64,000 nt of DNA. Source: Fidelibacterota bacterium. GTDB taxonomy: Bacteria > Fidelibacterota > UBA2242. Below, one piece after another: positions 35,414 through 54,601 of the stretch. The first letter of the stretch is position 1. Each line of letters opens with the position of its first letter. The DNA lies in the NCBI GenBank assembly GCA_049975265.1, contig JBNGDF010000012.1:11082-75081 (forward strand). The letters are read 5' to 3'. The translations under genes and the position numbers were made by a program. Below the pieces are notes generated by a model. The model was not told the origin of the DNA. It saw nothing but the letters and a program-made list of their open reading frames with translations, and did no database searches.

Positions 35414-36109
35414 ATGTCCTCTTTTTTAGCGGAGCTGCAGAAACTGAATCAGAAAGCAAATTTTTTCAGCAGGGAGCGCCGGCTGCTGCTGGCTGTTTCC
35501 GGCGGCATTGACAGCCTCTGCATGGCGCAGGTGCTGGCAGAATACCGCCGCGTGATTAATCCCGGTCTGAGCCTGGAAGCGGCGAATGTGCAGATCCCCC
35601 AAACGGCGCTGAAAGATTCTGATATGCAAATCTTGCGCGATTTTTTTAAAGAAATGAATATTCCGCTAACGATAATCAATGGAAATGTTGACGATTCACA
35701 ACCATTCATCTGCTATATCTGCGCCAGGGAACGCCGCAAACGGATTTTCCAGCATGCCGCAGAGCGGAAAATCGGATTAGTCGCCCTGGGACACAATCTG
35801 GATGATTATCTGGAAACCGCCTTGCTGAATCTGGTCCACGCCGGACACATGGAGTCATTACAGCCGGTGCAATCCTATTTTAATAATAAAATTACAGTGC
35901 TGCGTCCGCTGCTTTCGATTCGTAAAAAGCATGTTACGGCTTATGCGAAAGAGCATCAATTCCCAAAATTGACTTCCCAGTGTGCTTATGAATCCGACAA
36001 CCGGCGTGCGGCAATTCGTACGCTTATGGCTCAGCTGCAACGCTTAAACCGGGCGTTTATTCCCAATCTGCGCAAGGCGGTGAACCGGTGGAATAAATTA
36101 GAGGTTTAA
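35414..36109 (+). CDS. TtcA-family PP-loop tRNA thiolation protein
   Basis: AVSGGIDS, CYICARERR, LGHNLDD, LRPL. Confidence 0.8.
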   Translation: MSSFLAELQKLNQKANFFSRERRLLLAVSGGIDSLCMAQVLAEYRRVINPGLSLEAANVQIPQTALKDSDMQILRDFFKEMNIPLTIINGNVDDSQPFICYICARERRKRIFQHAAERKIGLVALGHNLDDYLETALLNLVHAGHMESLQPVQSYFNNKITVLRPLLSIRKKHVTAYAKEHQFPKLTSQCAYESDNRRAAIRTLMAQLQRLNRAFIPNLRKAVNRWNKLEV

Positions 36110-37470
36110 AATTTCGGCGCTTCCACCAGTTTTAAAAGCTTCATCAGCAGTAATGAGATAATCAGTGCTCCGGCAAATACACCAACGGTTAGAAGAAGAC
36201 TCCAATTCCACCAGATCGGCGCGTTGATCAGGACACTATAGCCCAGAATCACCGGAACCATGAAGAGATTCATGATGCCGACCTCCACGGCGACCGGCGA
36301 TTTGAATTCCGGATCAACGATTCGGAGCAGCAGCAGTCCGCTGGAGACGGTGCCGGTGACCGTTCCGTAAATGGTTACCGACCGTTCAATGTTGTACGAG
36401 AACAGCCGCCGCCCCAGGAAAATCACCATGATAGTGGTTGTCAGACCGCCGGTCAGTGCAATCAGCGTCACCGGCAGGATGAATTTCCAGACCACTACCA
36501 CCTGGATCGCCATAATGGTGGACACAATCAGGTAATCCACCGAGAACCCGGTAATGCGCCGTTGCAGACCGGAATCCAGCAGATGGTCTATTTTAAGTTT
36601 TTTCATTATGAGTTTGACCAGAAAGGCAATCGCCATCCCGATAAAGAAGAAAAATCCCCAGAGCATTTTTGCCATGTCCGGAGGGAGCAATTTTCCCAGT
36701 AGCAGTGTGAAACCGTACGACAGCAGATAGACCAGTCCGATGACGGCGGCATGAAATGCCAGGGTTTCAATATTGCCGGAGTGCATGGTGAGATTCCCGG
36801 CGGGCTCTTTATCATGATCTTTTGGCACAATGCCTTTCAGAAAGTGGCGTGGCAGTGATCCGGGCACCTGTGCCGTAAGCCCCTTGCGGATGCCCCAGTT
36901 CGCAATGGGTACTCCGACGAAAAAGGAAAACAGAAATCCTAGGGCGGCAAAGGTCAGCCCGATCGTGGCGGCATGTTCGAATCCCACGGTCTCCCAGACT
37001 TTGCCGAAGGACAGCGCCTGCCCGGGTCCCTCCTCAAAGCCCAACGATAGGAGAAAACCGAAAGTCGGGAACAGTTTAAAACCCAGCAGCCCGATTACGA
37101 TGACGATAAGTCCCCCGATCACCGCTTGCATCGAAAAGGAGATGCTCTGAATCACCGCCATCCAGGCGGAGCCTTTCAGATAATCTCTGGCGCGGATGGT
37201 GTCCGGCTGATCTTCGTTGCTGCCGGACAGACCGACAGAAATAAAGGAAATATTGAAAAAATGATAGGCAAATGTTTCGAGTGCTGAGGCTTCGATCCTA
37301 AGAACGCCGCAGCTGATAAAGACCAGCCCGAGAATGCCACCCAGAAGGCAGCTGGGAATTAGGAAATATTGAAAGAAGTGCAGCTTGTTGCGGAGATAGG
37401 CTCCGATCAGCAGCATCACGGATAATGCCCCGAAGATCAGCATCGTTTCAAATGGAAATGGAATGTTCAT
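36106..37470 (-). CDS. Sodium/glutamate symporter (GltS-like) family protein, paralogue of 15545..16951
   Basis: FQYFLIP, GFEEGPG, GLTFAALG, LLRIVDPEFKSP. Confidence 0.82.
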   Translation of the reverse strand: MNIPFPFETMLIFGALSVMLLIGAYLRNKLHFFQYFLIPSCLLGGILGLVFISCGVLRIEASALETFAYHFFNISFISVGLSGSNEDQPDTIRARDYLKGSAWMAVIQSISFSMQAVIGGLIVIVIGLLGFKLFPTFGFLLSLGFEEGPGQALSFGKVWETVGFEHAATIGLTFAALGFLFSFFVGVPIANWGIRKGLTAQVPGSLPRHFLKGIVPKDHDKEPAGNLTMHSGNIETLAFHAAVIGLVYLLSYGFTLLLGKLLPPDMAKMLWGFFFFIGMAIAFLVKLIMKKLKIDHLLDSGLQRRITGFSVDYLIVSTIMAIQVVVVWKFILPVTLIALTGGLTTTIMVIFLGRRLFSYNIERSVTIYGTVTGTVSSGLLLLRIVDPEFKSPVAVEVGIMNLFMVPVILGYSVLINAPIWWNWSLLLTVGVFAGALIISLLLMKLLKLVEAPKF

Positions 37471-37666: not shown

Positions 37667-37708
37667 TTGCATTTTAAAGTGGCGAATGATATAATTGTAT
37701 AGACAATT
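37667..37708 (+). promoter_or_regulatory. Promoter with overlapping operator 1 (etfB)
   Basis: TTGCAT-17 nt-TATAAT; AATTGTATAGACAATT at 37693-37708. Confidence 0.8.
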
Positions 37709-37888
37709 AATTTTAATACTCTTTTTTACAATGCTATTTAGAAAAATGAATACTGCATTTTTGGATGGAAAGTTTTAATTTCGGTTTGTCCAAATTCCGT
37801 CCGGTCGGGTACGGAGAACAGGGCTGGTAAAAATTCCAATGTAAATCCGAAGCGCCGCTGCGATAGGGCTGATAATCAGGGAGTAAGC

Positions 37889-38686
37889 ATGAAAATCATT
37901 GTACCGATTAAACAGGTTCCGGAAACCAGCAATGTCAGGATGGATCCGGAGACCGGAACCATGATCCGGGAGGGGGTCGAGCCGATCGTCAACCCGCTGG
38001 ATCTCTATGCCATTGAGGCAGCCATTCGGCTGAAAGAGCACGCCGGGGGTGAAATCATCGCTCTCACCATGGGACCGCCCAGTGCCCGCAAAGCGCTGAT
38101 GGAAGCAATTGCCATGGGTTGTGATGATGGCATTCTGCTCAGTAACAAGAAATTTGCCGGAGCGGATACCTGGTCAACATCATATGTTTTGTCGCAGGCG
38201 ATTAAAAAAATCGAAAAGTTTGACCTGATCCTCTGTGGCGAGCGCGCCACCGATGGTGATACCGGACAGGTGGGACCCGGAATCGCCGCCTGGCTGGATA
38301 TACCCTTTGCAACGTATGTCAGTAGGATTCAGGAGGTCCGTAACGGCAACCTGTACTGTGAACGGATGATTGAAACGGGGTATGAAGAGTTGGAGGTACA
38401 GCTGCCCTGCCTGCTGACTGTGGTCAAGGAGGTGAATTTTCCGCGCCTGCCGACATTAAAAGGAAAATTGCGTTCGAAAGCGGCGGAGCTGGAAACCTGG
38501 GGTCCGGCAGATATTGACGCCCAACCGGATTTTCTGGGTTTAAAGGGATCGCCGACCCGGGTAGTAAAAATTACCAAGCCGCAGGTGGCACGCCGGGGCA
38601 AAATTGTTGCGCCGAAAGATGAAAAGGAGTTAATGTCAGCGGTGGACGGACTGATTGAATTTTTAAAACAGAAAGAGATTGTCTGA
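37889..38686 (+). CDS. etfB: Electron transfer flavoprotein beta subunit
   Basis: IKQVP, NPLD, GADT, DGDTGQVGP, GLKGSPT. Confidence 0.95.
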   Translation: MKIIVPIKQVPETSNVRMDPETGTMIREGVEPIVNPLDLYAIEAAIRLKEHAGGEIIALTMGPPSARKALMEAIAMGCDDGILLSNKKFAGADTWSTSYVLSQAIKKIEKFDLILCGERATDGDTGQVGPGIAAWLDIPFATYVSRIQEVRNGNLYCERMIETGYEELEVQLPCLLTVVKEVNFPRLPTLKGKLRSKAAELETWGPADIDAQPDFLGLKGSPTRVVKITKPQVARRGKIVAPKDEKELMSAVDGLIEFLKQKEIV

Positions 38687-39723
38687 TGGATAGCAACGCA
38701 GCATATCAACATGTCTGGATTCTGGGTGAGCAGGAAAGCGGAATTATCCGGCAGGTCTCCTTTGAGCTGCTGAAGCGGGGGCGCGCTTTGGCGGATAAAC
38801 GCAGGTCACAGCTGGTGGCGGTTATCCTCGGTGATCGCTTTGAAGACCGTGAGTTGGCGCGCCTGTTTCACTACGGTGCCGACCGGATTATCGTTGTGCA
38901 GCGACCGGAGCTACGCTACTTTTTGCCGGAACCCTATACCAGGGTTCTGAAGACATTGATTAATAAATACCGCCCGGAAATTCTGATAGCCAGCGCCACG
39001 ACAACCGGAAGAACAGTAGCGCCGGCGGTGGCGGTTGTCTGTCATACCGGGCTGACCGCCGACTGTACCGAGTTGGATATCGATCCGGAAACGGGTAATC
39101 TGATTCAGACCCGTCCGGCGATCGGGGGCAATATTCTGGCGACCATCAAAACGCCGGCACACCGTCCTCAAATGGCAACGGTCCGGCCTCACTCCAACAA
39201 ACCACTGGAACCGGATGAGAGTCGCCGCGGCGAAATCATCCGGGAAACGGTGGAAGCAACGAGTCTGCAAAGCCGGGTCAAGCGGCTTGGATTTCGGGAA
39301 AACAGCGAAGCCGTGGGCAATATTCAAGACGCCGAAATCATCATCGCCGGCGGGAAGGGTTTCAAGAAAGATGAAAATTTCCGCATGGTGCGGGAACTGG
39401 CGGAGCTGTTTCCCGATGGTGCGGTCGGCGCAAGCCGGGATGCAGTAGACCGTGGTTGGGTCAGCTACACGCACCAGATCGGGCTGAGCGGGAAGACCGT
39501 CAGTCCGCGCTTCTATCTGGCAGTCGGGATATCGGGTTCAGTCCAGCATCTGGCGGGGATTAAGACGGCTGAAAATATTGCCGCCATCAATAACGATCCG
39601 GAAGCCCAGATTTTTCAGGTGGCGGACTACGGAATTGTCGCGGATTTATTTGAAGTATTACCACTGATCAAAGAGAAGCTGGCAGCCCTGAATCTGAAAC
39701 AGGAAGCGGAGGTGAGTGAATGA
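38686..39723 (+). CDS. etfA: Electron transfer flavoprotein alpha subunit
   Basis: GLTADCT, RPAIGGN, GASR, QIGLSGKTV, GISGSVQH. Confidence 0.95.
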   Translation: MDSNAAYQHVWILGEQESGIIRQVSFELLKRGRALADKRRSQLVAVILGDRFEDRELARLFHYGADRIIVVQRPELRYFLPEPYTRVLKTLINKYRPEILIASATTTGRTVAPAVAVVCHTGLTADCTELDIDPETGNLIQTRPAIGGNILATIKTPAHRPQMATVRPHSNKPLEPDESRRGEIIRETVEATSLQSRVKRLGFRENSEAVGNIQDAEIIIAGGKGFKKDENFRMVRELAELFPDGAVGASRDAVDRGWVSYTHQIGLSGKTVSPRFYLAVGISGSVQHLAGIKTAENIAAINNDPEAQIFQVADYGIVADLFEVLPLIKEKLAALNLKQEAEVSE

Positions 39724-41144
39724 ATCCGTCCAGTTATAAGCGTGTTGATTCCGGAATAGTGGAAATGTTAAAAAAAATTGTCGGTCCCCGTTTTGTGCTT
39801 TGGGATGAGCCGGATAAAATGGAGCCTTATTCACATGATGAGGTGGTGGACAAGCGCTACATGCAGATGCCCGAAGTGGTGGTGAAACCGCGGACTGCCC
39901 AGGAGGTGGCTCAGGTGATGCAGTTAGCCAGCCGGGAAAATATACCGGTGACGCCCCGTGGTGCCGGGAGCGGGCTTTCCGGCGGTGCTGTCCCGGTGTA
40001 CGGTGGAATTTTACTATCTGTGGAGCGCATGAACAGCATTTTGGAAATTGATAAAGCCAATATGGTGGCGGTTCTTGAGCCGGGTGTGATTACCAATGAC
40101 CTGAATTTACTGCTGGCGGAAGAGGGGCTCTTTTTTGCGGGCTACCCCATGAGCGTGGAGAGCTGTTTTATCGGCGGGAATGTGGCGGAAAATGCCGGGG
40201 GCGGGCGAGCGGTGAAATACGGTGTCACCGGACGCTATATTATCGGACTGGAGGTGGTTACGCCGGAAGGTGAGATCATCCAGCTGGGCGGCAAACGGGT
40301 CAAGGATGTGGTGGGTTACGACCTGATTCATCTGATGGTAGGCTCCGAAGGGACGCTGGGGATTTTTACCAAAATTTTTATTAAACTGTTGCCGCTGCCG
40401 TCAAAGCGGGTAGACCTGCTGGTCCTGTTTAAAGATATCGCCAGTGCGGTGGCGCTGGTGCCGAAGATCATCGCTTTCGGCAAAATCATTCCCACCGCTG
40501 TGGAATTTATGGATAAAACCGCCGTTGAACTCGCCTGCCGCTATTTAAATGAACAGCTCTATTCGCAGGACGTGGGAGCCATGCTGCTGATCGAGCTGGA
40601 CGGCAACGACGAGCCCGGGCTGGAGCGGGAATATGAAGTGATCGGTAAAATGTGCGAAGAAAACGGCGCCATTGAGGTCTATGTAGCCGATAACGCCACG
40701 ACTCAGGAGCGGGTCTGGGCGGTGCGGCGCAATGTACCGGAGGGAATCCAGACCTTTTATCCCGTTAAAAGTTCCGAGGATTTGGTGGTGCCCATTGCCA
40801 ACCTGCCGGAAATATTGCCGCAGATCACTGCCATCGCAAAAAAGCACGATGTCATCATCCCCTGCTTTGGTCATGCGGGCGACGGGAACATACATACCAC
40901 GATTGTTAAGAAACCGGAAATGTCAATGGACAGGTGGCATGAAGTTCAGGAGACGGTCCGGGTGGCGCTGTATCAGATGGTGCTTGCCAAAGGGGGCACG
41001 ATCAGCGGTGAGCACGGTATTGGTCACAAGCGGAAAAAATATCTTTCCATGGCACTCGATCCGGTAACAATCCGGCTGATGAAGCGAATCAAGCAGGCTT
41101 TTGATCCGGATCATATTCTGAATCCGGGGAAAATGTTTGAATAG
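39720..41144 (+). CDS. FAD-linked 2-hydroxy-acid dehydrogenase (GlcD/LctD family)
   Basis: RGAGSGLSGG, NAGG, KYGVT, GSEGTLG, GHAGDGNIH, GEHGIG, LNPGK. Confidence 0.88.
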   Translation: MNPSSYKRVDSGIVEMLKKIVGPRFVLWDEPDKMEPYSHDEVVDKRYMQMPEVVVKPRTAQEVAQVMQLASRENIPVTPRGAGSGLSGGAVPVYGGILLSVERMNSILEIDKANMVAVLEPGVITNDLNLLLAEEGLFFAGYPMSVESCFIGGNVAENAGGGRAVKYGVTGRYIIGLEVVTPEGEIIQLGGKRVKDVVGYDLIHLMVGSEGTLGIFTKIFIKLLPLPSKRVDLLVLFKDIASAVALVPKIIAFGKIIPTAVEFMDKTAVELACRYLNEQLYSQDVGAMLLIELDGNDEPGLEREYEVIGKMCEENGAIEVYVADNATTQERVWAVRRNVPEGIQTFYPVKSSEDLVVPIANLPEILPQITAIAKKHDVIIPCFGHAGDGNIHTTIVKKPEMSMDRWHEVQETVRVALYQMVLAKGGTISGEHGIGHKRKKYLSMALDPVTIRLMKRIKQAFDPDHILNPGKMFE

Positions 41145-41155
41145 CGAAAAAAAAC

Positions 41156-41197
41156 TTGCAGTTTTGAAACTGTTTAAGTATAATTGTATATACAATT
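41156..41197 (+). promoter_or_regulatory. Promoter with overlapping operator 2 (regulator gene)
   Basis: TTGCAG-17 nt-TATAAT; perfect palindrome AATTGTATATACAATT at 41182-41197. Confidence 0.85.
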
Positions 41198-41219
41198 GAA
41201 TCAGGAGTAAGATCCAGCC

Positions 41220-42317
41220 ATGATCATCGATCGAAACAGCCCGGTACCGCAGTATTTTCAGTTGCAAACCTGGCTACGGGAGCAGATTGAGCAGAGGGTT
41301 TTTAAACCGGGCGATAAGATACCGACGGAAGAGGAGCTGGTCCATATCACCGGTCTGGCGCGGGCAACGATTCGTCAGGCGATCAGCAATCTGGTGAATA
41401 TGGGCTATCTGACCCGCAAACGCCGTCTGGGAACTTTTGTCACCCGGCGCTCAAACAGGACCCAGCCTAAAAACATCATCGGTGTTTTGGTGCCCGACAT
41501 CCGGAGCGGCTATACACCGGAATTAGCCCGGGGTGTGGAAGATGCCGCCGCCAACAATAAACTGAGTACAATTTTGTGTAACACCGATGACCTGTTTATC
41601 AAGGCGGCTTTTCATGCGGAGCGTCTGCTTGAGAGCAATATCGGCGGGGTGATCTTTGTCCCCACCGCCGCTTCCGACGAAAAGAATCTGCAGATTATTG
41701 ACAAATTTCGCAAGCGGAATATCCCCGTGGTGCTGGCGGACCGCATCATTCCGAACACCGATGTGGACTATGTGACAACCGATAATTTTCACGGCGGTTA
41801 CCAGCTGACCAACTATTTAATCAAAAAAGGGCACCGCAGGATCGGCATCACGCTCAGCACGCTTTTCAGCACCGAGCGGCTGCGTTATGAAGGGTACCGC
41901 AAAGCCCTGGAAGAGGCGGGAATTTCACCCGAATCCGGCTGGATCAGACTGCATGACGGACCCTTTACAGAAAAGCATTATCAGCAGGTCGCCAAAGATC
42001 TGTTGAGCCATGACCGTAAAATCAGTGCCATGTTCGCTGGGCATGACCGGATTGCCTATGTTGTTTATTCGGTTGCCCAGAAATTAGGCATAAAAATTCC
42101 GGTGGATCTGTCGATCGTAGGCTATGATGATTTACATTCCACCTGCTCCCATCTGATTTCCCTGACGACCATGCATCAACCGATTTATGAGATGGGGCAG
42201 GAGAGTCTCGGAATTCTGGTTTCCAGGATGAATGGTGACAACGGGGGGCTCAAGCGACTGGAGTTAAAATCCAATTTGGTGGAACGCAACTCGGTCGTAC
42301 GCTTTAAGAATTCCTGA
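41220..42317 (+). CDS. GntR wHTH + LacI-type sugar-binding domain regulator (AraR architecture)
   Basis: PQYFQL...PTEEEL...RATIRQA...GTFV; then DNFHGG, GHRRIG, DLSIVGYDD, LTTMHQP. Confidence 0.9.
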   Translation: MIIDRNSPVPQYFQLQTWLREQIEQRVFKPGDKIPTEEELVHITGLARATIRQAISNLVNMGYLTRKRRLGTFVTRRSNRTQPKNIIGVLVPDIRSGYTPELARGVEDAAANNKLSTILCNTDDLFIKAAFHAERLLESNIGGVIFVPTAASDEKNLQIIDKFRKRNIPVVLADRIIPNTDVDYVTTDNFHGGYQLTNYLIKKGHRRIGITLSTLFSTERLRYEGYRKALEEAGISPESGWIRLHDGPFTEKHYQQVAKDLLSHDRKISAMFAGHDRIAYVVYSVAQKLGIKIPVDLSIVGYDDLHSTCSHLISLTTMHQPIYEMGQESLGILVSRMNGDNGGLKRLELKSNLVERNSVVRFKNS

Positions 42318-42347
42318 ATCCTAAAAAAAGTGAAAAGACATTAGTAA

Positions 42348-43361
42348 ATGAAAAAAATGATCAACATCGGATTGATTGGCACCGGACGGTTGGGGAGTAT
42401 GTATGCCGAATTTCTGGTTCAGCATGTCCCGCAGGCAAATCTAATTGCGGTGGCGGATTTGATTCCGGAGCGTGCACAAAAGATAGCGGAACAGTACGAT
42501 ATTCCGAAATGGTACGACAGTCATCAAGGGGTCAATCGCGATCCGCAGGTAGATGCGGTGGTGATTACGGCGACCACCGGCAACCACAAGGAGATTGTCA
42601 TTGATGCCGCCCGGGAAGGCAAACCGGTTTTCTGTGAAAAGCCGATGACGCTGAATCTTGACGATGCCCGGGAGATGAAGCGGGCGGTTATAACGGCGGG
42701 TGTTTTTTATCAGCAGGGTTATATGCGCCGGTTTGATAAGGGATTTTCGGCGGTAAAGCGGAAAATCGAAGAGGGTGTCATCGGAACGCCGGTGGTGTTT
42801 CGCGGATCATCCCGGGACCCCTTTCTGCCGGAGTTAGATTATCTTTTACCTGAGAACAGCGGGGGTCAGATTCTGGATATGGCGATTCATGATTTCGATA
42901 TTGCCCGCTGGTATATGGGTGATATTCGGTCGGTCTATACGATTGGCGGCGTGCTGGCATTTCCCGAAGTCAAGTCTACCGGTGATACCGATAATGTGGT
43001 CATGGCATTTACTTTTCAGTCGGGCGCACTGGGCGAAGTTGATATCAGTCGCAACGGCGTCTATGGCTATGATATCCGGGCGGAAGTACTGGGAACCAAA
43101 GGGACCCTAAAGGCGGGTTATCTGCGAGATACGCCTATTCTGGTAATGAACAAAGAGGGCGTAACCCACGACGTCGTACCCTATTTCCCGGAACGCTTTT
43201 GTGAAGCCTATGTCGCCCAATTGAATAACTATCTGAATAATCTTCGTAATGCAACCGACCCGCTGATCACCATTGACGACGGCATCAGTGGTTTGCAGGT
43301 CGCTGTCGCTGCGACAGACTCCCTGAAAAAGGAAACCGCCGTTAACGTTGCCGATTATTAG
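42348..43361 (+). CDS. iolG: Inositol 2-dehydrogenase (Gfo/Idh/MocA)
   Basis: IGTGRLG, CEKP, RRFD, SRDP, DMAIHDFD, YGYDIRAEV; context. Confidence 0.85.
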   Translation: MKKMINIGLIGTGRLGSMYAEFLVQHVPQANLIAVADLIPERAQKIAEQYDIPKWYDSHQGVNRDPQVDAVVITATTGNHKEIVIDAAREGKPVFCEKPMTLNLDDAREMKRAVITAGVFYQQGYMRRFDKGFSAVKRKIEEGVIGTPVVFRGSSRDPFLPELDYLLPENSGGQILDMAIHDFDIARWYMGDIRSVYTIGGVLAFPEVKSTGDTDNVVMAFTFQSGALGEVDISRNGVYGYDIRAEVLGTKGTLKAGYLRDTPILVMNKEGVTHDVVPYFPERFCEAYVAQLNNYLNNLRNATDPLITIDDGISGLQVAVAATDSLKKETAVNVADY

Positions 43362-43377
43362 AATTTTTTTTGAATAT

Positions 43378-43393
43378 TATTGTCTATTCAATT
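43378..43393. promoter_or_regulatory. Operator 3 (upstream of iolM)
   Basis: TATTGTCTATTCAATT; two mismatches to the reverse complement of operator 1. Confidence 0.65.
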
Positions 43394-43428: not shown

Positions 43429-44616
43429 ATGAGAACCGTGACTCTTTTTGCCGACTGGGACCCTAAACCGGAGTTCAAGCTGGGTAGTAAGGATATCGAG
43501 GGTAAATTAACCTATCTTGGGAGCAAAGTCTGGCGGCATCCCCACGTGGAGATTGTGGAGAAAGAGATTCCGAAACCGGGTCCTTCGCAAGTGCTGATTG
43601 AAGTCCGGGCTTGCGGGATTTGTGGGAGCGACGTGCATATGCTGCAGACGTCGTCGGACGGCTACATTTTTTATCCGGGACTGACTGCTTTTCCGGCGAC
43701 GCTGGGGCATGAGTTTTCCGGAAAGGTGATTCAGGCGGGACCCCAAGCGATCAACAAGCGAACCGGTCTGCCCTACGAGGTGGGCGAGGCGGTCTGTTCT
43801 GAGGAGATGATGTGGTGTTCCTACTGTCGTCCCTGCGCCGACGGATTTCCCAATCATTGTGAGCATTTGCAGGAGATCGGTTTTTCCTGCGATGGTGCCT
43901 ATGCCAAATACATCGCCGTGGATGCCCGCTATCTCTGGAGCATTGAAGATTTACGACCAATTTACGGTGAGGAAAAAATGTATGAGCTGGGCAGCCTGGT
44001 GGAGCCGACGTCGGTGGCGTATAATGCGGTCATCGAACGGGGCGGCGGCATTCGACCAGGCGATAATGTGGTGATCATGGGCAGCGGTCCGGTGGGCATC
44101 GCTGCCTGTGCTGTTCTAAGTCGAGCCGGTGCGGCGAGAGTGATCATTTCAGAACCCTCCCAATCCCGGCGGGATATGGCGATTGCCATGGGTGCCACAC
44201 ACGGCATTGATCCGACCAGAGTGAATGCCGCCGATGCTATCCTAAATATTACCAATGGTGAGGGCGCCAAGCTGATTCTCGAAGCCACCGGTCTGCCCAG
44301 CGTGGTCTGGCCGGATGTGGAGAAGATTATCTGGGAAGGCAAAACTCTGAACACGACGGTGGTCATCGTAGCCCGGGCGGACGATAAAATTCCTATGAAC
44401 GGTGAAGTGTTCCAGGTCCGCCGGGCAAGTGTGGTTGGCGCCCAGGGGCATTCGGGACACGGAACCTTTCCACGGGTGATCAGCTCCATGGCAAGTGGCA
44501 TGGACGTATCGGGATTGATCACCAAGCGCATCAAGCTGGAAGAGGTACCGGAAAATCTGGTGCTGTTGCAAACCAATCGGGAAGAGGTGAAAATTACCGT
44601 TTTCCCTGAAGAGTAA
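43429..44616 (+). CDS. iolM: scyllo-inosose 3-dehydrogenase
   Basis: WDPKPEFKLGSKDIEGKLTYLGSKVWR N-terminus as in Thermotoga IolM; CGICGSD, GHE, GAQGHSGHGTFP. Confidence 0.92.
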   Translation: MRTVTLFADWDPKPEFKLGSKDIEGKLTYLGSKVWRHPHVEIVEKEIPKPGPSQVLIEVRACGICGSDVHMLQTSSDGYIFYPGLTAFPATLGHEFSGKVIQAGPQAINKRTGLPYEVGEAVCSEEMMWCSYCRPCADGFPNHCEHLQEIGFSCDGAYAKYIAVDARYLWSIEDLRPIYGEEKMYELGSLVEPTSVAYNAVIERGGGIRPGDNVVIMGSGPVGIAACAVLSRAGAARVIISEPSQSRRDMAIAMGATHGIDPTRVNAADAILNITNGEGAKLILEATGLPSVVWPDVEKIIWEGKTLNTTVVIVARADDKIPMNGEVFQVRRASVVGAQGHSGHGTFPRVISSMASGMDVSGLITKRIKLEEVPENLVLLQTNREEVKITVFPEE

Positions 44617-44649: not shown

Positions 44650-45744
44650 ATGGAAGGCTGGCTGAAAACAGATCGAACCGACCTGAGTTTTGAGGACACG
44701 TCGGTCGGACGGCTGAAGAAGAAAATCTGGGAAGCTTCGGAAGATGAAATTTCCGAAATTCTGGAAAACTACGGAATTCCAACACCCTCGGAACTGGCGA
44801 AACCGGGTACCTATGTGCAGACAACCATTCGACAGAAAGTGGTGGAAAACCGCAAGAAAAATGATATTGTCTTTGTGCCTATTGGCTGTACCGAGCTGCA
44901 TGGTCGGCACACGGTCACTGCTTTGGACTCATTTATGGTGACCCAGATTCTGGAGGGTGTCCGCCGGGATTCGGTGAAAAAGGGCACGCCGGTGAATCTG
45001 GTCTGGAATCCGCTGAATTATGGCGGTCATCCCCATCACCATATCGGCATGCCGGGCACGATTCACATTGAGGATGAAGTGCTGAAACGGGTGCTGATTG
45101 ACGTCATGGTTGGTCTCTGGAATGACGGATTCCGTAAAATCATTCTGGTAAACAATCATGGTCACTCCTGGCTTCTGGAGGCGGCGATTCAGGAATTGCA
45201 GAAAACCTGGAATCTGCCGGGCATTTTCCGCACGATTGACTGGCATCGCGCCGTACGGGAGTTTTTCCGCACCAGAGATAGGGGCGGCGATTGGGAGGAT
45301 AATTTTTTCCATGCCGATGAAGCCGAAACCTCGGTAATGCTGCTGTTGGCGCCGGAATATGTCGAAATGGCGCTGGCGGAAGAGACCAGGGTAGAGGGCT
45401 ATCTGCCCGATGGTCACATGGATAAAGCGGTAGATCCCTTTGCTAGACCCTGCCGCTGGTCGGAGGGACAGGGGCACGGCCCGATGGAGATCAATTCGAT
45501 TCCCGAAGGGGTGGTAGGTCGTCCCACGATCGCCGAAGCCAGAAAAGCCCGGCGCACCATCGCTGCAATTTTGTCCTATCTGACCCTGTTATGGGAAGAG
45601 ATTCTGGAAGCCTATCCCGCCGGCACATTTCCGCCGATTGAAAAGACCACCATGCGAACGGAAAAGGAGATGGAACCGTACCTGAAGGAGCCTTTTACTG
45701 AGGGTTGGCGTCCAATCTATGCCATTCGCAAGATGGGATTGTAA
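44650..45744 (+). CDS. iolN: 3-dehydro-scyllo-inosose hydrolase (creatininase family)
   Basis: PIGCTELHG, HPHHHIGMPGT, NNHGH, HADEAETS; directly follows iolM. Confidence 0.88.
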   Translation: MEGWLKTDRTDLSFEDTSVGRLKKKIWEASEDEISEILENYGIPTPSELAKPGTYVQTTIRQKVVENRKKNDIVFVPIGCTELHGRHTVTALDSFMVTQILEGVRRDSVKKGTPVNLVWNPLNYGGHPHHHIGMPGTIHIEDEVLKRVLIDVMVGLWNDGFRKIILVNNHGHSWLLEAAIQELQKTWNLPGIFRTIDWHRAVREFFRTRDRGGDWEDNFFHADEAETSVMLLLAPEYVEMALAEETRVEGYLPDGHMDKAVDPFARPCRWSEGQGHGPMEINSIPEGVVGRPTIAEARKARRTIAAILSYLTLLWEEILEAYPAGTFPPIEKTTMRTEKEMEPYLKEPFTEGWRPIYAIRKMGL

Positions 45745-45824: not shown

Positions 45825-46817
45825 ATGAAGAGACAAAACATTCAATATTTATTGCTCAGTGCATTGATTCTGGCGCTTGCCATCGGTTGTCAACCCGAAA
45901 TACCCGGAACAGGCGAAGATGTTATTCCCCAACACGCCCAGTCTCTGGCGGAGCTGGAGGAGCCTTTTACATTTTTGATTGCCGGGGATCTGGGTCGCAA
46001 CGGATATTATTATCAGAAGCCCGTGGCGGAAATGATGGGGGCGGTTGTCGCCATCGTGGATGCGGAGTTTGTCGCAGCTGTGGGCGATGTCCACCATTTT
46101 CTGGGTGTCCGGTCGATTCATGATCCGCTCTGGGAGACCAACTTCGAGTGGATTTACAAACATCCCGAATTGATGACACACTGGTACCCGGTATTGGGCA
46201 ATCACGAATATGAGGGCAATACCCAGGCTGTTATCGACTATTCCGGAATTAGCCGCCGCTAGGAAATGTCTGCCCGTTATTATGAAAAGACGTGGCAGGT
46301 AGCCGGTAATACCGAAGTTCTGCTGCTTTTTATCGATACGGTGCCGCTAATTGACAAATATCGTAATAATCCGGAGGAGTACCGCGATGCCTGTACACAG
46401 TCCATGGAGCGGCAGCTGACCTGGATCGATTCCACTCTTGGCGCCTCCGGAGCCAAATGGAAAATCGTGCTGGGGCATCACCCCATTTATGCCGGTACAT
46501 ATAAAGATGATATTGAACGAACCGATTTGCAGAAACGCCTTCAGCCACTGCTTGACAAACATCATGTGGATTTTGTGGTTAGTGGGCATATTCACAATTT
46601 TCAGCATATCCGGGTGAAAGGCTCCGACATTGATTATTTGATCAACACTTCAGGTTCGCAGGCTCGTGAAGCTGATGAAAGACACCGGACGGAAGGACAA
46701 CTGTTTACAAGTTCGGATTCCGGCTTCTCCCTTTGTACGGTGAAAGAGGATGAGTTGATTATTACCTTTGTTAATAAAAAAGGGGAAATCATCTATCAGT
46801 ATGCCCGAAGCAAATAA
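45825..46817 (+). pseudogene. Purple-acid-phosphatase-like metallophosphoesterase lipoprotein split by in-frame TAG at 46260-46262
   Basis: Two ORFs in one frame: LAIGC lipobox, GDLG, GDVHH, GNHE | GHHP, GHIH. Junction reads SRR*EMSARYY. Confidence 0.85.
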
Positions 46818-46861
46818 TCCACGGAATGGTTTTTCCGGTTCCGGTAATTAGGAATGGAACA

Positions 46862-47674
46862 ATGAAGCTCAGTATAGTAATCTCGACCCAGCCGGCGACA
46901 TTCAATGCCCTGGCTTATAAAGGCAAAGTTGCAGAGAACATTGAAAAGGTGCGAAAACTGGGTTACGATGGCGTCGAACTGGCGGTTCGTGATCCGCGGC
47001 TGCTGGATTTGGCGGTGGTGAAGGCATTGACCATTGATACCGGATTTCCGGTGTCCGCCCTTGGAACCGGACAGGCTTTCGGCGAAGAAGGGCTGTCATT
47101 TTCCAGTCCCGATCGGACAATTCGCAGGAAAGCCATTGAAAGGATTAAATCGCACATTGATGTCGCCGCGCAGTTAAACGCAATTGTGATTATTGGATTG
47201 ATTCGCGGCATTGTGAAGCCGGGAGATGATCCGGAGCAAGCCGAGGCATGGATTATTGAGGCGCTCGATACGTGTGCCGCTGTTAATCCGGATGTCAAAT
47301 TGGTCATTGAGCCCTGTAATCGTTATGAAGCCAATACGGTCAACACGGTTGGCGAGGGCATGGCTCTGGTGGACAAACTGGGACGAGCAAATGTCGGTCT
47401 GCTGCTGGATACCTTTCATATGAATATCGAAGAGCCGGATATGCTGGAAAGTATTGAGAATGCCGGTCAGCGGTTATTTCACTTCCACATCGCCGATTCC
47501 AACCGCTGGTATCCGGGCGCCGGTCATATTGATTTTCAGGCGGTTTGCTGGAAGCTGTCCCAAATCGGTTATGCGGGCTTTCTGTCCGCTGAGATTCTGC
47601 CCTTACCCGATGCCGATACCGCCGCCGAAATGACCATTCATACAATGCGAAATTTGGAAAACATAAAAAAATAA
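46862..47674 (+). CDS. iolO: 5-keto-L-gluconate epimerase
   Basis: MKLSIVIST...F.ALA.KG, VELAVRDP, GTGQ, EPCNRYE, DTFHMNIEE, HIADSNR. Confidence 0.88.
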   Translation: MKLSIVISTQPATFNALAYKGKVAENIEKVRKLGYDGVELAVRDPRLLDLAVVKALTIDTGFPVSALGTGQAFGEEGLSFSSPDRTIRRKAIERIKSHIDVAAQLNAIVIIGLIRGIVKPGDDPEQAEAWIIEALDTCAAVNPDVKLVIEPCNRYEANTVNTVGEGMALVDKLGRANVGLLLDTFHMNIEEPDMLESIENAGQRLFHFHIADSNRWYPGAGHIDFQAVCWKLSQIGYAGFLSAEILPLPDADTAAEMTIHTMRNLENIKK

Positions 47675-47703: not shown

Positions 47704-48747
47704 ATGGAAATGATGAATGCGCTTGTTTTTAAGAAAGTCGGACAGATTGACTTTGAATGGATTCCAATTCCGAAAGTGACCGAGCCGAACCAGGTTCTGG
47801 TCAAAGTCGCCGCCTGTGGGATATGCGGCTCCGATGTTAAAATTCTCGAGGGTAAACATGCTTACCGGGAAAATACGGTACTGGGACATGAGTTTTGCGG
47901 AACGGTGGTTGAGGTCGGCAATAGAGTCACGGCTGTCAAAAAGGGCGACTGGATTGCCCTGGATAACAACTCCCGCTGCGGACTGTGTGAATTTTGCCGG
48001 ATGGGTATGAGCAGTCAGTGTGTGGAATTAAAGAATCGCACCCTGGGAGTTTTCAGGAACGGCGGTTTTGCGGAGTACACCCTGGCAACCGAGGACGTCT
48101 GTTTCAAAATTCCCGATACCATTGATGAAATTCTCGGGACTCAGGTGGAAACCCTTGGCACCGTGCTGAACGGAATGAATACCGTCCAGATGCAGTGTTA
48201 CGATTCGGTGCTGGTGCTGGGATGTGGTCCGATTGGTTACCTTTTTACCGCCATTGCCAAGAATGTTGCCGCCGAAGTTGCCGTAACGGAAATTGATCCC
48301 TTCCGGTTCAAAGTTGTGGAAAAGTTCGGAGTACCTGTTTTTAATCCCGATGAGTGTGATCTGGAAGCTGAGGTCATCAAACTCACCAATGGCAAGAAGT
48401 TTGATATTGTCATAGATGCGGTGGGGACCCAATTGGAGAATGCCCTGAAATATGTCACACCCGGCGGAAAAATTCTGGCATTCGGGATGGACAGCAGCTG
48501 TAAAGCGACGATTGATCCCTATATCGTTACCCGGAATGCGATTAAGATTCTGGGAACCTACATCGGGCAGAATACCATTTTGCCGGCGATTAAGCTCTAT
48601 CGAACCCATAAGCTGGAAATGGACAATTTTTTCACTGAAACACTGCCTCTGAGGGATGGTCCGGGTGCGTTTAGAAAGCTCGGTCTGGATTTAAAAACGC
48701 TGCAACACCTACCCAAACGGGCGATGAAGATTGTACTGAAGCCGTGA
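47704..48747 (+). CDS. Zn-dependent polyol/sugar-acid dehydrogenase (MDR family)
   Basis: CGICGSD, GHEF, CGLCEFC...C, GCGPIG. Confidence 0.88.
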   Translation: MEMMNALVFKKVGQIDFEWIPIPKVTEPNQVLVKVAACGICGSDVKILEGKHAYRENTVLGHEFCGTVVEVGNRVTAVKKGDWIALDNNSRCGLCEFCRMGMSSQCVELKNRTLGVFRNGGFAEYTLATEDVCFKIPDTIDEILGTQVETLGTVLNGMNTVQMQCYDSVLVLGCGPIGYLFTAIAKNVAAEVAVTEIDPFRFKVVEKFGVPVFNPDECDLEAEVIKLTNGKKFDIVIDAVGTQLENALKYVTPGGKILAFGMDSSCKATIDPYIVTRNAIKILGTYIGQNTILPAIKLYRTHKLEMDNFFTETLPLRDGPGAFRKLGLDLKTLQHLPKRAMKIVLKP

Positions 48748-48775: not shown

Positions 48776-50128
48776 ATGAATAAAATATTACGATTTTTCG
48801 CGACCGGTAAAGATAAACCGCTGATTCAGGATCAGGCAAAAGTCGACCGACTGTACAGGCGATACCGCTTGTCGGTTATGCTGGCGATCTCGGTGGGGTA
48901 TGGTCTGGCGTATACCTTGCGATTGGCATTGAATATGGTCAAGAAGCCGATTCTGGATGCGGGAATTTTTACCCCCACCGACTTGGGGAATATCGGTTCG
49001 GCGCTTCTCTATACTTATGCCATCGGTAAATTTACCAACGGATTTTTAGCCGACCATGCCAATGTCAAACGCTTTTTTGCGTTCGGGGTATTGATGTCAG
49101 CCCTTGTCAATATTGCGATGGGTTCTTCAGCGATTCTCTGGCTTTGGATCATATTGTGGGGGTTGAACGGCTGGTTTCAGTCTTTCGGTGCGCCCACGGG
49201 TGCGGTCACGCTTTCCAACTGGTTCAGTAAATCGGAACGGGGACGTTTCTATGGAATCTGGAGTACCGGTCACAATATCGGTGAGGGCTTGACCTTTGTC
49301 GTGACGTCGGCGGTCGTCTCCTATTGGGGCTGGCGGGCTGGATTCATTGTTCCGGGAGTGTTTTGCATATTGCTGTCCGGACTGATTTATCTGGCGCTGC
49401 AGGACAAACCCCGCACTCTGGGATTACCCCTGGTAGCTGACTGGAAAAAGGATTACAGTGCTCCGCCGGATCTTGAGAAAAATAAAACCGAGCTGACCTC
49501 CAAAGCGCAGTTGCAGGTTCTGAAAACTCCGGCGATCTGGGTTTTGGGTTTCGCCAGCGCCTTTGTTTACATGACCCGCTACGCCATTAACAGCTGGGGC
49601 GTGCTCTATCTCCAGGAAGCCAAAGGCTATTCGCTGATGGAGACGGGCGCGATTCTCGGTTTAAATACGGTTGCCGGTATTTTCGGCTGTATTGTGTATG
49701 GTTTCATTTCCGACAAACTGTTCAAAGCGCGGCGTCCGCCGGTGACTCTGATTTACGGGATCATCGAGCTGACAGCGCTGTTTATCATCTTTTTCAGTGC
49801 TCCAAATCAGCCTATTCTGGTGACGGCGGCATTTGTCTGCTACGGTTTTACCATGAGTGGTCTGCTGGCTTCACTGGGAGGCTTGTTCGCCATTGATATT
49901 GCGCCGAAAAAAGCCGCCGGCGCTGCGATGGGTTTTATCGGTATTTTCAGCTATATCGGTGCCGGTATCCAGGATCAGATCAGTGGTCTGCTGATTGAGA
50001 AGGGGTGCCGGATTGTGGATGGAGCCCTGACCTACGATTTTTCGAAGGTGATTATGTACTGGATCGGTTCATCCTTCTTATCAATGATTCTGGCTGCGAT
50101 ACTTTGGAAAGCTAAAACCAGCGATTAG
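48776..50128 (+). CDS. MFS organophosphate:Pi antiporter (GlpT/UhpT family)
   Basis: YAIGKFTNGFLAD, NGWFQSFG, WFSKSERG, WSTGHNIG, PKKAAGAAMGFIG. Confidence 0.88.
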   Translation: MNKILRFFATGKDKPLIQDQAKVDRLYRRYRLSVMLAISVGYGLAYTLRLALNMVKKPILDAGIFTPTDLGNIGSALLYTYAIGKFTNGFLADHANVKRFFAFGVLMSALVNIAMGSSAILWLWIILWGLNGWFQSFGAPTGAVTLSNWFSKSERGRFYGIWSTGHNIGEGLTFVVTSAVVSYWGWRAGFIVPGVFCILLSGLIYLALQDKPRTLGLPLVADWKKDYSAPPDLEKNKTELTSKAQLQVLKTPAIWVLGFASAFVYMTRYAINSWGVLYLQEAKGYSLMETGAILGLNTVAGIFGCIVYGFISDKLFKARRPPVTLIYGIIELTALFIIFFSAPNQPILVTAAFVCYGFTMSGLLASLGGLFAIDIAPKKAAGAAMGFIGIFSYIGAGIQDQISGLLIEKGCRIVDGALTYDFSKVIMYWIGSSFLSMILAAILWKAKTSD

Positions 50129-50146: not shown

Positions 50147-51028
50147 ATGAAACATTATGACACAGTAATTTTTGGGAATTATACCAGCGATACCATCATT
50201 ACCAAACAGGGCAGCCGCCATGTAGACGGTGGTGGTTTTAATTACGGCGCCCATGCGGCGGTGGGGCTGGGATATAAAGTAGCCGCCGTGACACGGTTGG
50301 CGAAAGCCGACAGCCATGTGATCAGCATGCTGGAAAACGCCGGAATTGATGTTTTCCCCACCTTTACGTCGTCATCCACCCAGATGGTTCTGGACTACCC
50401 GACGGATAATCCCGACGAGCGGATTCTGACCTGTCCGCAAACCGCTGGCAGTTATACGATTGACCAGTTTCGGGATTTTCGCGCCAAAGCCTGGCTGATC
50501 AACACCTCCGTCAGGGAGGAGGCGCCGGTGGAGCTGGTAGAGTATCTGCATGCTCAGCCGGGACTGCTGGTGGCGGACGCTCAGGGCTTCGTCAGAGTGC
50601 GTGGTGAGGGCGGTCGTCTGATTCATGCTGAATGGCCACAAAAGCGGCATGTGCTGAGCATGCTGAACATTCTGAAAGCCGATATCAAGGAGGCGGAGTC
50701 ACTGACCGGTGAGAGCGATCTGAAAAAAGCGGCGAAGATTCTCAACGAGTGGGGACCTGCCGAAATTGTTCTGACCCATCGCAGCGGTATCCTGGTGTAC
50801 GCCGATGGGAAATATTATGAAGCCGGATTTTTCCCGGAAAAGCTGATCGGTCGCAGTGGGCGCGGTGATACCTGTATTGCCTTGTATGCCGCTAAGCGAC
50901 TATCGGCGCCGCCGGAAGAAGCAATTATCTGGTCGGCGGCGGTGACGAGCCTGAAAATGGAAGCGGACTCGCCCTTTTTAAGACCGCTCGGCGACGTTGA
51001 GAAACTCATCGAAAGGAGATACCGATGA
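50147..51028 (+). CDS. iolK: PfkB-family kinase resembling Thermotoga myo-inositol kinase
   Basis: ADAQGFVRV, EAESLTG, GRSGRGDTC, AAVTSLKM; context. Confidence 0.75.
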   Translation: MKHYDTVIFGNYTSDTIITKQGSRHVDGGGFNYGAHAAVGLGYKVAAVTRLAKADSHVISMLENAGIDVFPTFTSSSTQMVLDYPTDNPDERILTCPQTAGSYTIDQFRDFRAKAWLINTSVREEAPVELVEYLHAQPGLLVADAQGFVRVRGEGGRLIHAEWPQKRHVLSMLNILKADIKEAESLTGESDLKKAAKILNEWGPAEIVLTHRSGILVYADGKYYEAGFFPEKLIGRSGRGDTCIALYAAKRLSAPPEEAIIWSAAVTSLKMEADSPFLRPLGDVEKLIERRYR

Positions 51029-51918
51029 ACAGGGGCAATACAATTTTAAGAAAGAGTTCCAGAACTGTCTTTATGGCGATTGTACTGGCGTTGATGCTGG
51101 TAATCCCGCTGTTCAATTGTTCGGTTGAAGAGCCGGTCTCCTTTATTGTCGCCCAGGATCAGCGGTATAAAGCCACAGAGGAGTATCACCACCCAGAATA
51201 CTTTATGGGAGCATTGCTGGCGATTAAAGAGGTCGGACCGGGCGACTTCATGCTCAGTCCGGGCGATCTGGACCCGATGTATGCCACCCGGGAGCTGGTA
51301 GCGGAAATTCTCGGTGCGGATTATCCCTGGTATCCGGCGGTGGTCAACCACGACATGGAGGATCCGGAAACTATGGCCTATTTTCGGGATTATAACCGCA
51401 ACGGGAATTCCCTGCCCCATATCGTCCGCAGTGGTCCGCCGGGCTGTGAGGAGACCACCTACTCTTTCGAAATCGGTGACTGTCATGTGGCGGTCATCAA
51501 CGTCTATTATGATGGGAAATCTGATGTGGGTACCGATGGCGATGTGGTTCCGGAGCTGCTGGAATGGCTTGAGGAGGATCTCAAAAACACAGATAAGCCC
51601 TTTATTTTTGTCGCCGGGCATGAGCCGTTGGTGGCGCAGCCGGATATGGATAATGGTCGCGTTCGGCACCAGGGCGATTCGCTGGATAAATATTTTCGCA
51701 ATGCCTACAAGCTGCGGGAGCTGCTGAAAAAATATAACGTTCAGGGAATTTTCAACGGGCATTCCCACGGCTCTTCGGTTGCCAAGGTCAATGGTCTCTG
51801 GCAGCTGGATGCCGGGCACGCCTACGGGTTGGAAAGAAAAACCCCGGAGCGAATGTACTGCTCCAGGGCACCAATTTCGGTGCCACCACCGACCGAACCG
51901 GTTATTTTTGTATTCTGA
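51025..51918 (+). CDS. Metallophosphoesterase lipoprotein, C-terminus probably truncated
   Basis: Signal peptide with Cys; QD, PGDLD, NHD, GHEP, GHSH. The tail after ~51850 is an off-frame read of the TBDR gene. Confidence 0.78.
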   Translation: MNRGNTILRKSSRTVFMAIVLALMLVIPLFNCSVEEPVSFIVAQDQRYKATEEYHHPEYFMGALLAIKEVGPGDFMLSPGDLDPMYATRELVAEILGADYPWYPAVVNHDMEDPETMAYFRDYNRNGNSLPHIVRSGPPGCEETTYSFEIGDCHVAVINVYYDGKSDVGTDGDVVPELLEWLEEDLKNTDKPFIFVAGHEPLVAQPDMDNGRVRHQGDSLDKYFRNAYKLRELLKKYNVQGIFNGHSHGSSVAKVNGLWQLDAGHAYGLERKTPERMYCSRAPISVPPPTEPVIFVF

Positions 51919-54570: not shown

Positions 54571-54601
54571 GGCTGAAATTCGAAATTTGAATAAGGAGAA
54601 A

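Follow-up and report, generated by a model that had tools for sequence, protein, structure and literature searches.

Predicted operators of a GntR-LacI-type regulator place an etfBA-dehydrogenase unit beside inositol and phytate genes in a Fidelibacterota bacterium

The route by which Thermotoga maritima degrades inositol through IolG, IolM, IolN and IolO was reportedly described in Rodionova 2013. Its regulator IolR (TM0411) belongs to the ROK family and recognises a 23-bp site, and no effector was found for it among inositol, 2-keto-inositol and other compounds (PMC3553997, PMC3750489, PMC5931981). Among GntR-type regulators, the AraR subfamily combines a GntR winged helix with a GalR/LacI-type domain (PMC4494728). 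Here, we analysed a 64,000-nucleotide (nt) stretch of a Fidelibacterota genome (GCA_049975265.1, contig JBNGDF010000012.1, positions 11,082 to 75,081), called the window below, in which a GntR-LacI chimera stands between an electron-transfer flavoprotein (ETF)/dehydrogenase unit, etfBA-dehydrogenase, and a set of inositol and phytate genes. Three palindromes in this region are very probably the operators of the chimera, which would act as a repressor of its own gene as well as of the inositol/phytate genes downstream and of etfBA-dehydrogenase upstream. The sites, their register with the -10 boxes, their conservation, their tracking from genome to genome and their co-variation with the regulator are direct observations; what the protein does at them is predicted from sequence.

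The three sites are O1 (AATTGTATAGACAATT, 37693-37708), O2 (AATTGTATATACAATT, a perfect palindrome at 41182-41197) and O3 (TATTGTCTATTCAATT, 43378-43393), all of which were found exactly. O1 overlaps the -10 box of P1, a predicted sigma70-type promoter on the plus strand (37667-37695) with the -35 box TTGCAT at 37667-37672, a spacer of 17 nt and the -10 box TATAAT at 37690-37695. O2, 38 nt ahead of the start codon of the regulator gene, is combined in the same way with the predicted plus-strand promoter P2 (41156-41184; TTGCAG at 41156-41161, 17 nt, TATAAT at 41179-41184), and at both sites the last three bases of TATAAT fall inside the palindrome. A first-pass annotation of the window had reported three sites, the first two in the register TTGCA(T/G)-17 nt-TATAAT, and all of this was confirmed. 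The TTGC, the spacing and the box of P1 all align in five relatives. P1 and P2 were not listed by a consensus promoter scan, as their -35 boxes match TTGACA at three of six positions, which is under its cut-off; a consensus scan for terminator-like sites, which we judged uninformative, gave none in the dehydrogenase-regulator and iolG-iolM gaps.

Conservation was followed upstream of homologues of the regulator. A search yielded 78 loci, from which nine distant LacI-type proteins (29-35% identity) and two matches without the N-terminus were removed, leaving 67. Using an iterated palindromic matrix trained on those same upstream regions (at least 12 bits, at most 250 nt upstream), the box (consensus WTTGTMTAKACAAW) was detected ahead of 65 of the 67 homologues, while shuffled regions gave a mean of 0.1 and a maximum of 1. 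These 65 homologues are 48-88% identical and carry the labels Marinimicrobia, KSB1, Calditrichia, Ignavibacteria, Bacteroidota and Acidobacteriota; iolM is present in 54 of their loci. G5 and C12 of the box are invariant in all 65 sites. The promoter register is conserved as well, with TTG at offset -26 in 53 of 64 regulator upstream regions (four or fewer at any other offset) and a -10 box matching TATAAT at five or more of six positions in 50 of 64. The two homologues that lack the box, L080 and L081 (45% identical), have an altered recognition helix (RATIKHAV) and an altered effector pocket, and show a different palindrome, TATTGAC(C/T)GAACAATA, in the same promoter register (L080:9961-9976, L081:2417-2432). 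They represent a sister regulator subfamily, with a gene resembling a TonB receptor adjoining. Of the 95 high-scoring sites in regulator loci totalling 877 kb, 86 are intergenic, compared with an intergenic share of 14.5% of the DNA, and the intergenic sites precede the regulator, TonB receptor, iolM, Zn-dehydrogenase, FAD (flavin adenine dinucleotide) dehydrogenase, etfB or ABC genes. Longer Ignavibacteria loci have two further sites ahead of phytase genes. Moreover, an extra A(G/T)ACAA half-site immediately 3′ of the palindrome in 25 of 64 regulator promoters suggests tandem binding by a further protomer or dimer.

Within the window's genome (G000; 2.86 Mb, 95% complete, closest relatives labelled Neomarinimicrobiota), the sites are also distinctive. 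The pattern derived in the first-pass annotation has six strand-matches (three sites) against 0.26 expected, and none of 100 shuffles reached six, in a test that is circular, the pattern having been taken from the sites themselves. An independent matrix, built from 32 distinct sites of distant orthologues and excluding G000 and nine loci of its order, ranked O1 (26.0 bits), O2 (25.4 bits) and O3 (18.4 bits) first to third, followed by a next site at 14.4 bits. The genome-wide motif scan that the first-pass annotation had proposed as a check hence returned three strong sites only, all of them in the inositol locus. Forty column-permuted matrices gave a mean of 1.6 (maximum 6) genome matches at 18.4 bits or more; a site that scores as O3 does is thus no rarity in itself, and the case for O3 is made by its position and conservation. 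Only O1 and O2 come within one mismatch of a perfect palindrome in G000, and O3 is one of 22 sites with three mismatches. A whole-genome pattern search allowing one mismatch in five relatives gave control-level counts and was useless as a regulon finder.

The predicted repressor itself (41220-42317, plus strand; 365 amino acids) fuses a NagR/HutC-like GntR winged helix (PF00392, residues 17-74) to a LacI/GalR-type effector domain (PF00532/PF13377, residues 86-359). The HutC subfamily is marked by a C-terminal UTRA domain. No UTRA match was found in the regulator, which has the LacI-type domain instead. The first-pass annotation had likened the palindromes to those bound by AraR-type regulators, and the domain architecture, an N-terminal GntR winged helix with a C-terminal GalR/LacI-type domain, is that of the AraR subfamily. 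The box does not: it is of the HutC-subfamily type GTMTAKAC, and the ara box ATTTGTACGTACAAAT, with its central CG and crucial G9, differs from O1, O2 and O3 at 4, 5 and 7 positions, respectively. The core reads MTAK, and ACGT occurs in none of the 65 best sites and in one secondary site of L078. Furthermore, the DNA-binding domain is nearer to NagR/YvoA (2.5e-14) than to AraR (4.5e-9), and the arabinose gene araA (C16:25478) is without a site, the best score within C16 15-35 kb being 3.4 bits. Considering core, helix domain and araA together, we rejected the regulator as an AraR orthologue.

The unit downstream of O1 comprises etfB, encoding the ETF beta subunit (37889-38686; NF040731 1.7e-80, below cut-off), etfA (38686-39723), whose product most resembles ETFs of the bifurcating type (CarE, T. 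maritima EtfA), and a gene for a FAD/metal-dependent D-2-hydroxyacid dehydrogenase of the LctD/GlcD/D2HGDH family with a “type A” pocket (39720-41144). All three lie on the plus strand, and their stop and start codons overlap. Of the order's 42 genomes, 30 contain the dehydrogenase family, nine the regulator and seven iolM. A type-A dehydrogenase adjoins the regulator or lies one gene away in all nine regulator-bearing genomes. An operator of 22-25 bits precedes all six regulator-adjacent etf/dehydrogenase units whose upstream region is assembled and none of the 17 other units (best 1.2 bits; in one of them the upstream sequence ends after 85 nt). The 17 include the G000 paralogue on contig C8. 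Since the genomes are kin, these units are not independent events. Placement of etfBA-dehydrogenase in the regulon, as first proposed from the window alone, is thereby supported. Taken together, the box stands at 65 of 67 regulators, at 6 of 6 adjacent etf/dehydrogenase units and at 8 of 57 iolM genes, so that the motif is not absent from orthologous loci, the outcome that the first-pass annotation had set against its own prediction. One genome, G021, has orthologous etf-dehydrogenase (80%) and iolM (88%) genes; the regulator was not found in it and the operator stands at neither. Left half-sites AATTGTATGAAA persist there before etfB and iolM (L133 upstream of 2988; L134 upstream of 1236) and are possibly decayed operators. 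A metagenome scan with the dehydrogenase gave 26 loci, two of which have the regulator and both of these the operators; the two apparently stem from the same organisms as G002 and G040. A distant metagenome locus without the regulator, L168, has one 15-bit site. At L033:10001-13136, the gene pair immediately behind the regulator encodes a different ETF (48% identity) and has no dehydrogenase with it; gnd and a LarA-family gene lie alongside. Membership in the regulon does not prove a role of the dehydrogenase in inositol catabolism: the family occurs in 30 of the 42 genomes, and genome G013 has the regulated unit with neither iolM nor iolN found.

O3 lies ahead of iolM. Eight of 57 iolM orthologues have a site 40-53 nt upstream, and in these eight and O3 TTGT-TATTCAAT is invariant, i.e. 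an A-to-T change at position 11 is fixed. The equivalent position is reportedly crucial to binding by AraR. Most likely O3 acts as an auxiliary site or roadblock of tuned, lower strength, and in the 49 loci without an iolM site the gene would be covered by the promoter of the regulator. Conservation of O3 agrees with the proposal that the regulator represses iolM onward, while repression through a promoter of its own is not supported, O3 having an invariant mismatch and no recognisable promoter.

From these elements, a simple mechanism can be proposed. By analogy with NagR, AraR and LacI-family proteins, a dimer would read the TTGT/ACAA half-sites via its winged helices. Sitting over the -10/start region at O1 and O2, it would block initiation by RNA polymerase at P1 and P2, and O2 would confer negative autoregulation. 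A sugar-like ligand may close the LacI-type domain and cause the regulator to let go of the DNA. We lean slightly, as a guess, towards a pathway intermediate (keto-inositol, 5-keto-L-gluconate or D-tagaturonate) as effector rather than myo-inositol. The dehydrogenase would pass its electrons through the ETF. In the ancestral layout, represented by G014 and G040, the O1 promoter would have driven a sugar ABC importer and then etfBA-dehydrogenase, and in G000 it would read straight into etfB. O1 was also considered as a control element of the divergent gltS-like gene; this is disfavoured, as the operator tracks the ABC/etf direction in G013, G014, G016 and G022.

Several observations weigh against this interpretation. 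The 65 of 67 count relies on a matrix trained on the regions that it scored, and the box is a generic HutC-subfamily consensus in a genome with four to five other GntR-type domains. Most iolM orthologues (49/57) lack a site of their own, and at O3 no promoter with a -35/-10 pair was recognisable, either in register (CGATTA at the -35 position) or across nine aligned orthologous gaps. Type-A dehydrogenases also occur in eight genomes of the order in which the regulator was not found, and the regulator-adjacent copies may stem from one recruitment. The register of Lys350, a pocket residue discussed below, against Ala363 of mouse LDHD depends on the alignment, HMMER having put a two-residue gap there. 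Finally, G013 (93% complete) has the regulator, both operators and etf-dehydrogenase before a pectin locus; iolM and iolN were looked for in this genome and not found.

The most serious alternative, which we regard as possible yet distinctly less probable, accepts the operator and holds that etfBA-dehydrogenase is a passenger: a housekeeping D-lactate/D-2-hydroxyglutarate enzyme that was left under the promoter of an ABC importer after loss of the ABC genes and does not take part in the breakdown of inositol. In G014, the homologous promoter-operator indeed lies 34 nt before the ATPase gene of a sugar ABC importer, with etfBA-dehydrogenase downstream; G040 has the same gene order and G025 a perfect site ahead of an ABC ATPase gene. 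Sugar ABC importer genes were searched for in G000 and not found, and a comparison of the 180-nt leader between O1 and etfB with ABC genes, as a test for remnants, gave no significant similarity. A passenger would also fit the distribution of the dehydrogenase family, far wider than that of iolM (30 versus 7 genomes), the position of several type-A copies near gltS-like transporters and the onward route that leads from tagaturonate to Gnd by way of UxaE, an SDR, a nickel epimerase and a kinase, which is encoded and does not need this enzyme. What speaks for a retained function is that the 22-25-bit operator is kept in three different reduced layouts, with etfB first in G000/G002, etfB first in G013 and the dehydrogenase alone in G016/G022. 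Moreover, nine other regulator loci contain an unrelated YdiJ-type dehydrogenase, in no case alongside the LctD type, and in a sample of one class this enzyme was seen only in iolM-positive genomes.

Fairly improbable is a second alternative, in which the regulator is a general sensor of keto-aldonates (tagaturonate/hexuronate), the inositol genes are its commonest but not its defining targets, and the dehydrogenase is a core member of the regulon. The G013 locus, with regulator, two operators and etf-dehydrogenase upstream of pectin genes, is what such a sensor would predict, and the effector-pocket motifs of the G013 regulator are unchanged; pectin and this inositol route both yield D-tagaturonate. 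G013 is, however, a single incomplete genome, iolM is found in 54 of 65 regulator loci, and the pectin/uxaE locus on C8 of G000 has no site. Binding by some other GntR/HutC-type factor would explain the subfamily consensus of the box and draws on the four to five further GntR domains of G000, but it is very unlikely, given that the box tracks the regulator across phyla, changes with its helix, is absent where the regulator is absent and has its only three strong G000 sites at the inositol locus. The palindrome as a by-product of AT-rich promoter sequence, which the three-base overlap with the -10 box and the AT-rich intergenic DNA might suggest, is hardly credible, as 13 of 16 positions lie outside the -10 box, G5 and C12 never vary and 17 comparable promoters are without the box.

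Behind the regulator, all on the plus strand, follow an iolG-like inositol 2-dehydrogenase gene (42348-43361; TIGR04380 332 bits, just under the cut-off of 355), iolM for scyllo-inosose 3-dehydrogenase (43429-44616; 493 bits, cut-off 450), iolN for 3-dehydro-scyllo-inosose hydrolase (44650-45744; 314 bits, cut-off 245), a metallophosphoesterase gene (45825-46817) and iolO for 5-keto-L-gluconate epimerase (46826-47674; 360 bits, cut-off 300). IolM, IolN and IolO are thus clustered and all above their NCBIfam cut-offs, as befits a pathway of the Thermotoga type. Further downstream are a second Zn-dependent dehydrogenase gene (47704-48747), which has its own operator ahead in several distant orthologous loci, genes for a GlpT/UhpC-type organophosphate transporter of the major facilitator superfamily (MFS; 48776-50128) and for a homologue (50147-51028; 6.7e-39) of the pyrophosphate (PPi)-dependent myo-inositol kinase TM0415, in which, by alignment, the motifs around Lys171, Arg229 and Arg232 appear conserved, and a beta-propeller phytase gene (54587-55735; PF02333 4e-46). 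The metallophosphoesterase gene is interrupted by an in-frame TAG at 46260-46262 (TGG in G002, where the gene is intact), which splits it into frames of 145 and 183 amino acids. Between kinase and phytase (51025-54500), a C-terminally truncated metallophosphoesterase (51025-51918), aligning only to residues 1-278 of a 401-residue orthologue, is followed by an N-terminally truncated TonB-dependent receptor (51927-54500), aligning only from residue 54 of a 937-residue orthologue and in another frame. This pair is consistent with a deletion; seen together with the TAG-split gene, it points to a locus that is decaying at its phytate-uptake end.

The onward route from D-tagaturonate is encoded elsewhere in G000, with the UxaE family on contig C8; UxaE, the SDR, the nickel epimerase, the kinase and Gnd are all encoded in G000 and likewise within the locus of genome G061. 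The C8 region (G000:C8:27350-86886; L095-L097) contains an nqr-like operon, as read from starts of open reading frames, a paralogous etfBA-dehydrogenase that has no operator, and a pectin locus comprising uxaE, kdgA/kdgK, kduI, uxaC, the SDR gene, gnd and a LarA-type nickel epimerase gene. UxuA and UxaA-type dehydratases were looked for in the 95%-complete G000 and not found, and this gene set suggests a mannonate-to-gluconate epimerase route.

The pocket of the dehydrogenase may hint at what it oxidizes. Its best match in the Protein Data Bank is LctD of Acetobacterium woodii (7QH2, 3.4e-105), whose metal and carboxylate ligands are conserved. Two pocket types exist in the order, A (xKSSED) and B (xQSLED), and all regulator-adjacent copies are of type A, represented in the window by R336, P340, K350, S352, H385, H392, T394, E431 and H432. 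In mouse LDHD, the hydrophobic subsite is formed by Trp351, Ser365 and Ile407, with Ala363 nearby; by sequence alignment only, type A has Pro340, Ser352, Thr394 and probably Lys350 at this subsite. Type-B copies include the C8 paralogue of G000 and ones beside murQ, anmK and namZ. At L143:6408-19061, L144 and L145, a type-B etfBA-dehydrogenase lies inside a cluster for N-acetylmuramic acid (MurNAc) recycling (murQ, anmK, namZ, alanine racemase). MurQ releases D-lactate. Type B in MurNAc clusters likely serves ETF-linked disposal of MurQ-derived D-lactate, and because type B adjoins murQ, anmK and namZ, the D-lactate job looks taken by this paralogue. For type A, there is perhaps an even chance that the substrate, instead of D-lactate, is an (R)-2-hydroxy acid whose tail is polar or anionic. 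A gltS-like symporter gene (36106-37470, minus strand) lies divergent from etfB, and similar genes are found near type-A copies in G008, G014 and G031; such neighbours may point to the substrate.

The YdiJ-type enzyme, an unrelated FAD/Fe-S dehydrogenase of 950 amino acids, is encoded in nine of 69 loci examined. In a sample of 251 genomes of the class of G061, it was found in only two, both iolM-positive (one being the query genome) and adjacent in both, and in none of the 249 others. In about three quarters of the loci retrieved, neither the LctD-type nor the YdiJ-type dehydrogenase lies within the span, and the onward route is encoded in G000 and in the G061 locus, so a side or redox step is more likely than a main-line one. 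More tentatively, the operator might expose an unrecognised step of the IolM/N/O pathway, in which two unrelated enzymes, both drawn into the regulon, use FAD to oxidize an (R)-2-hydroxy sugar acid that is polar or phosphorylated. The substrate could be, for example, the D-enantiomer of 5-keto-gluconate from ring opening or the product of the TM0415-type PPi kinase. These Marinimicrobia would use the ETF-coupled, possibly bifurcating LctD type for the step, and Ignavibacteria and Calditrichia a YdiJ-type Fe-S fusion. If this were true, the effector of the regulator would reveal a signal that was missed by the assays of T. maritima IolR.

Overall, our analysis sharply defines a predicted regulator-operator pair by which uncultured Marinimicrobia, KSB1, Calditrichia and Ignavibacteria would control their use of inositol and phytate, a Thermotoga-type pathway being run there by a non-homologous regulator. 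Through the operator, genes that were otherwise unassigned are linked to the pathway, namely those for the FAD dehydrogenases and a Zn-dehydrogenase, for an MFS transporter and a PPi kinase, and for a TonB receptor and phytase. Its control logic, an autoregulated repressor acting on the -10 box, is textbook; the pairing of regulator and pathway did not appear in the papers searched, and the main draw is a FAD dehydrogenase in two unrelated forms tied to inositol/phytate use. No description of the regulator or its box was found by full-text searches for this pathway, regulator or these taxa, a scope outside which lie RegPrecise, where an entry is possible, subscription journals and supplements. 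Besides the sources cited for each system, the comparison drew on PMC8579813, PMC12632266, PMC10589216 and PMC13234733.

Compared with described systems, the etfB-etfA-dehydrogenase order is that of the bifurcating lactate dehydrogenase/ETF complex LctBCD of A. woodii. An Fe-S motif in EtfA is described in PMC6085437; the EtfA of the window (345 amino acids) aligns to LctC residues 70-389, without the N-terminal extension of about 65 residues, and thus has no Fe-S-binding extension. The side pocket of the window's dehydrogenase also differs from that of LctD in being polar with a Lys, by a sequence alignment of uncertain register. Among the regulators, AraR of Bacillus subtilis (PMC1950556, PMC4494728) shares the GntR winged helix with GalR/LacI domain, the length of about 365 amino acids, the 16-bp TTGT..ACAA palindrome and a single box at its own gene, whereas the targets of the window's regulator are inositol genes. 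With the HutC subfamily (NagR/YvoA, HutC, DasR), it has in common the operator consensus GTMTAKAC and the nearest DNA-binding domain, but its effector domain is of the LacI/periplasmic-binding type and not UTRA. IolR of Corynebacterium glutamicum is likewise a GntR-type repressor of inositol genes but controls the classical IolE/IolD route (both as cited in PMC9603128). T. maritima has the same catabolic enzymes IolM, IolN and IolO, a TM0415-type PPi kinase and local autoregulated control (PMC3553997, PMC3750489, PMC5931981). Window-type loci add phytase, TonB receptor, MFS transporter and FAD dehydrogenase to this set, and their regulator is not homologous to IolR, being neither of the ROK family nor directed to a 23-bp site. 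A regulator of the window type is likely to replace the ROK-family IolR of Thermotoga over a locus of IolG/M/N/O, phytase and PPi kinase.

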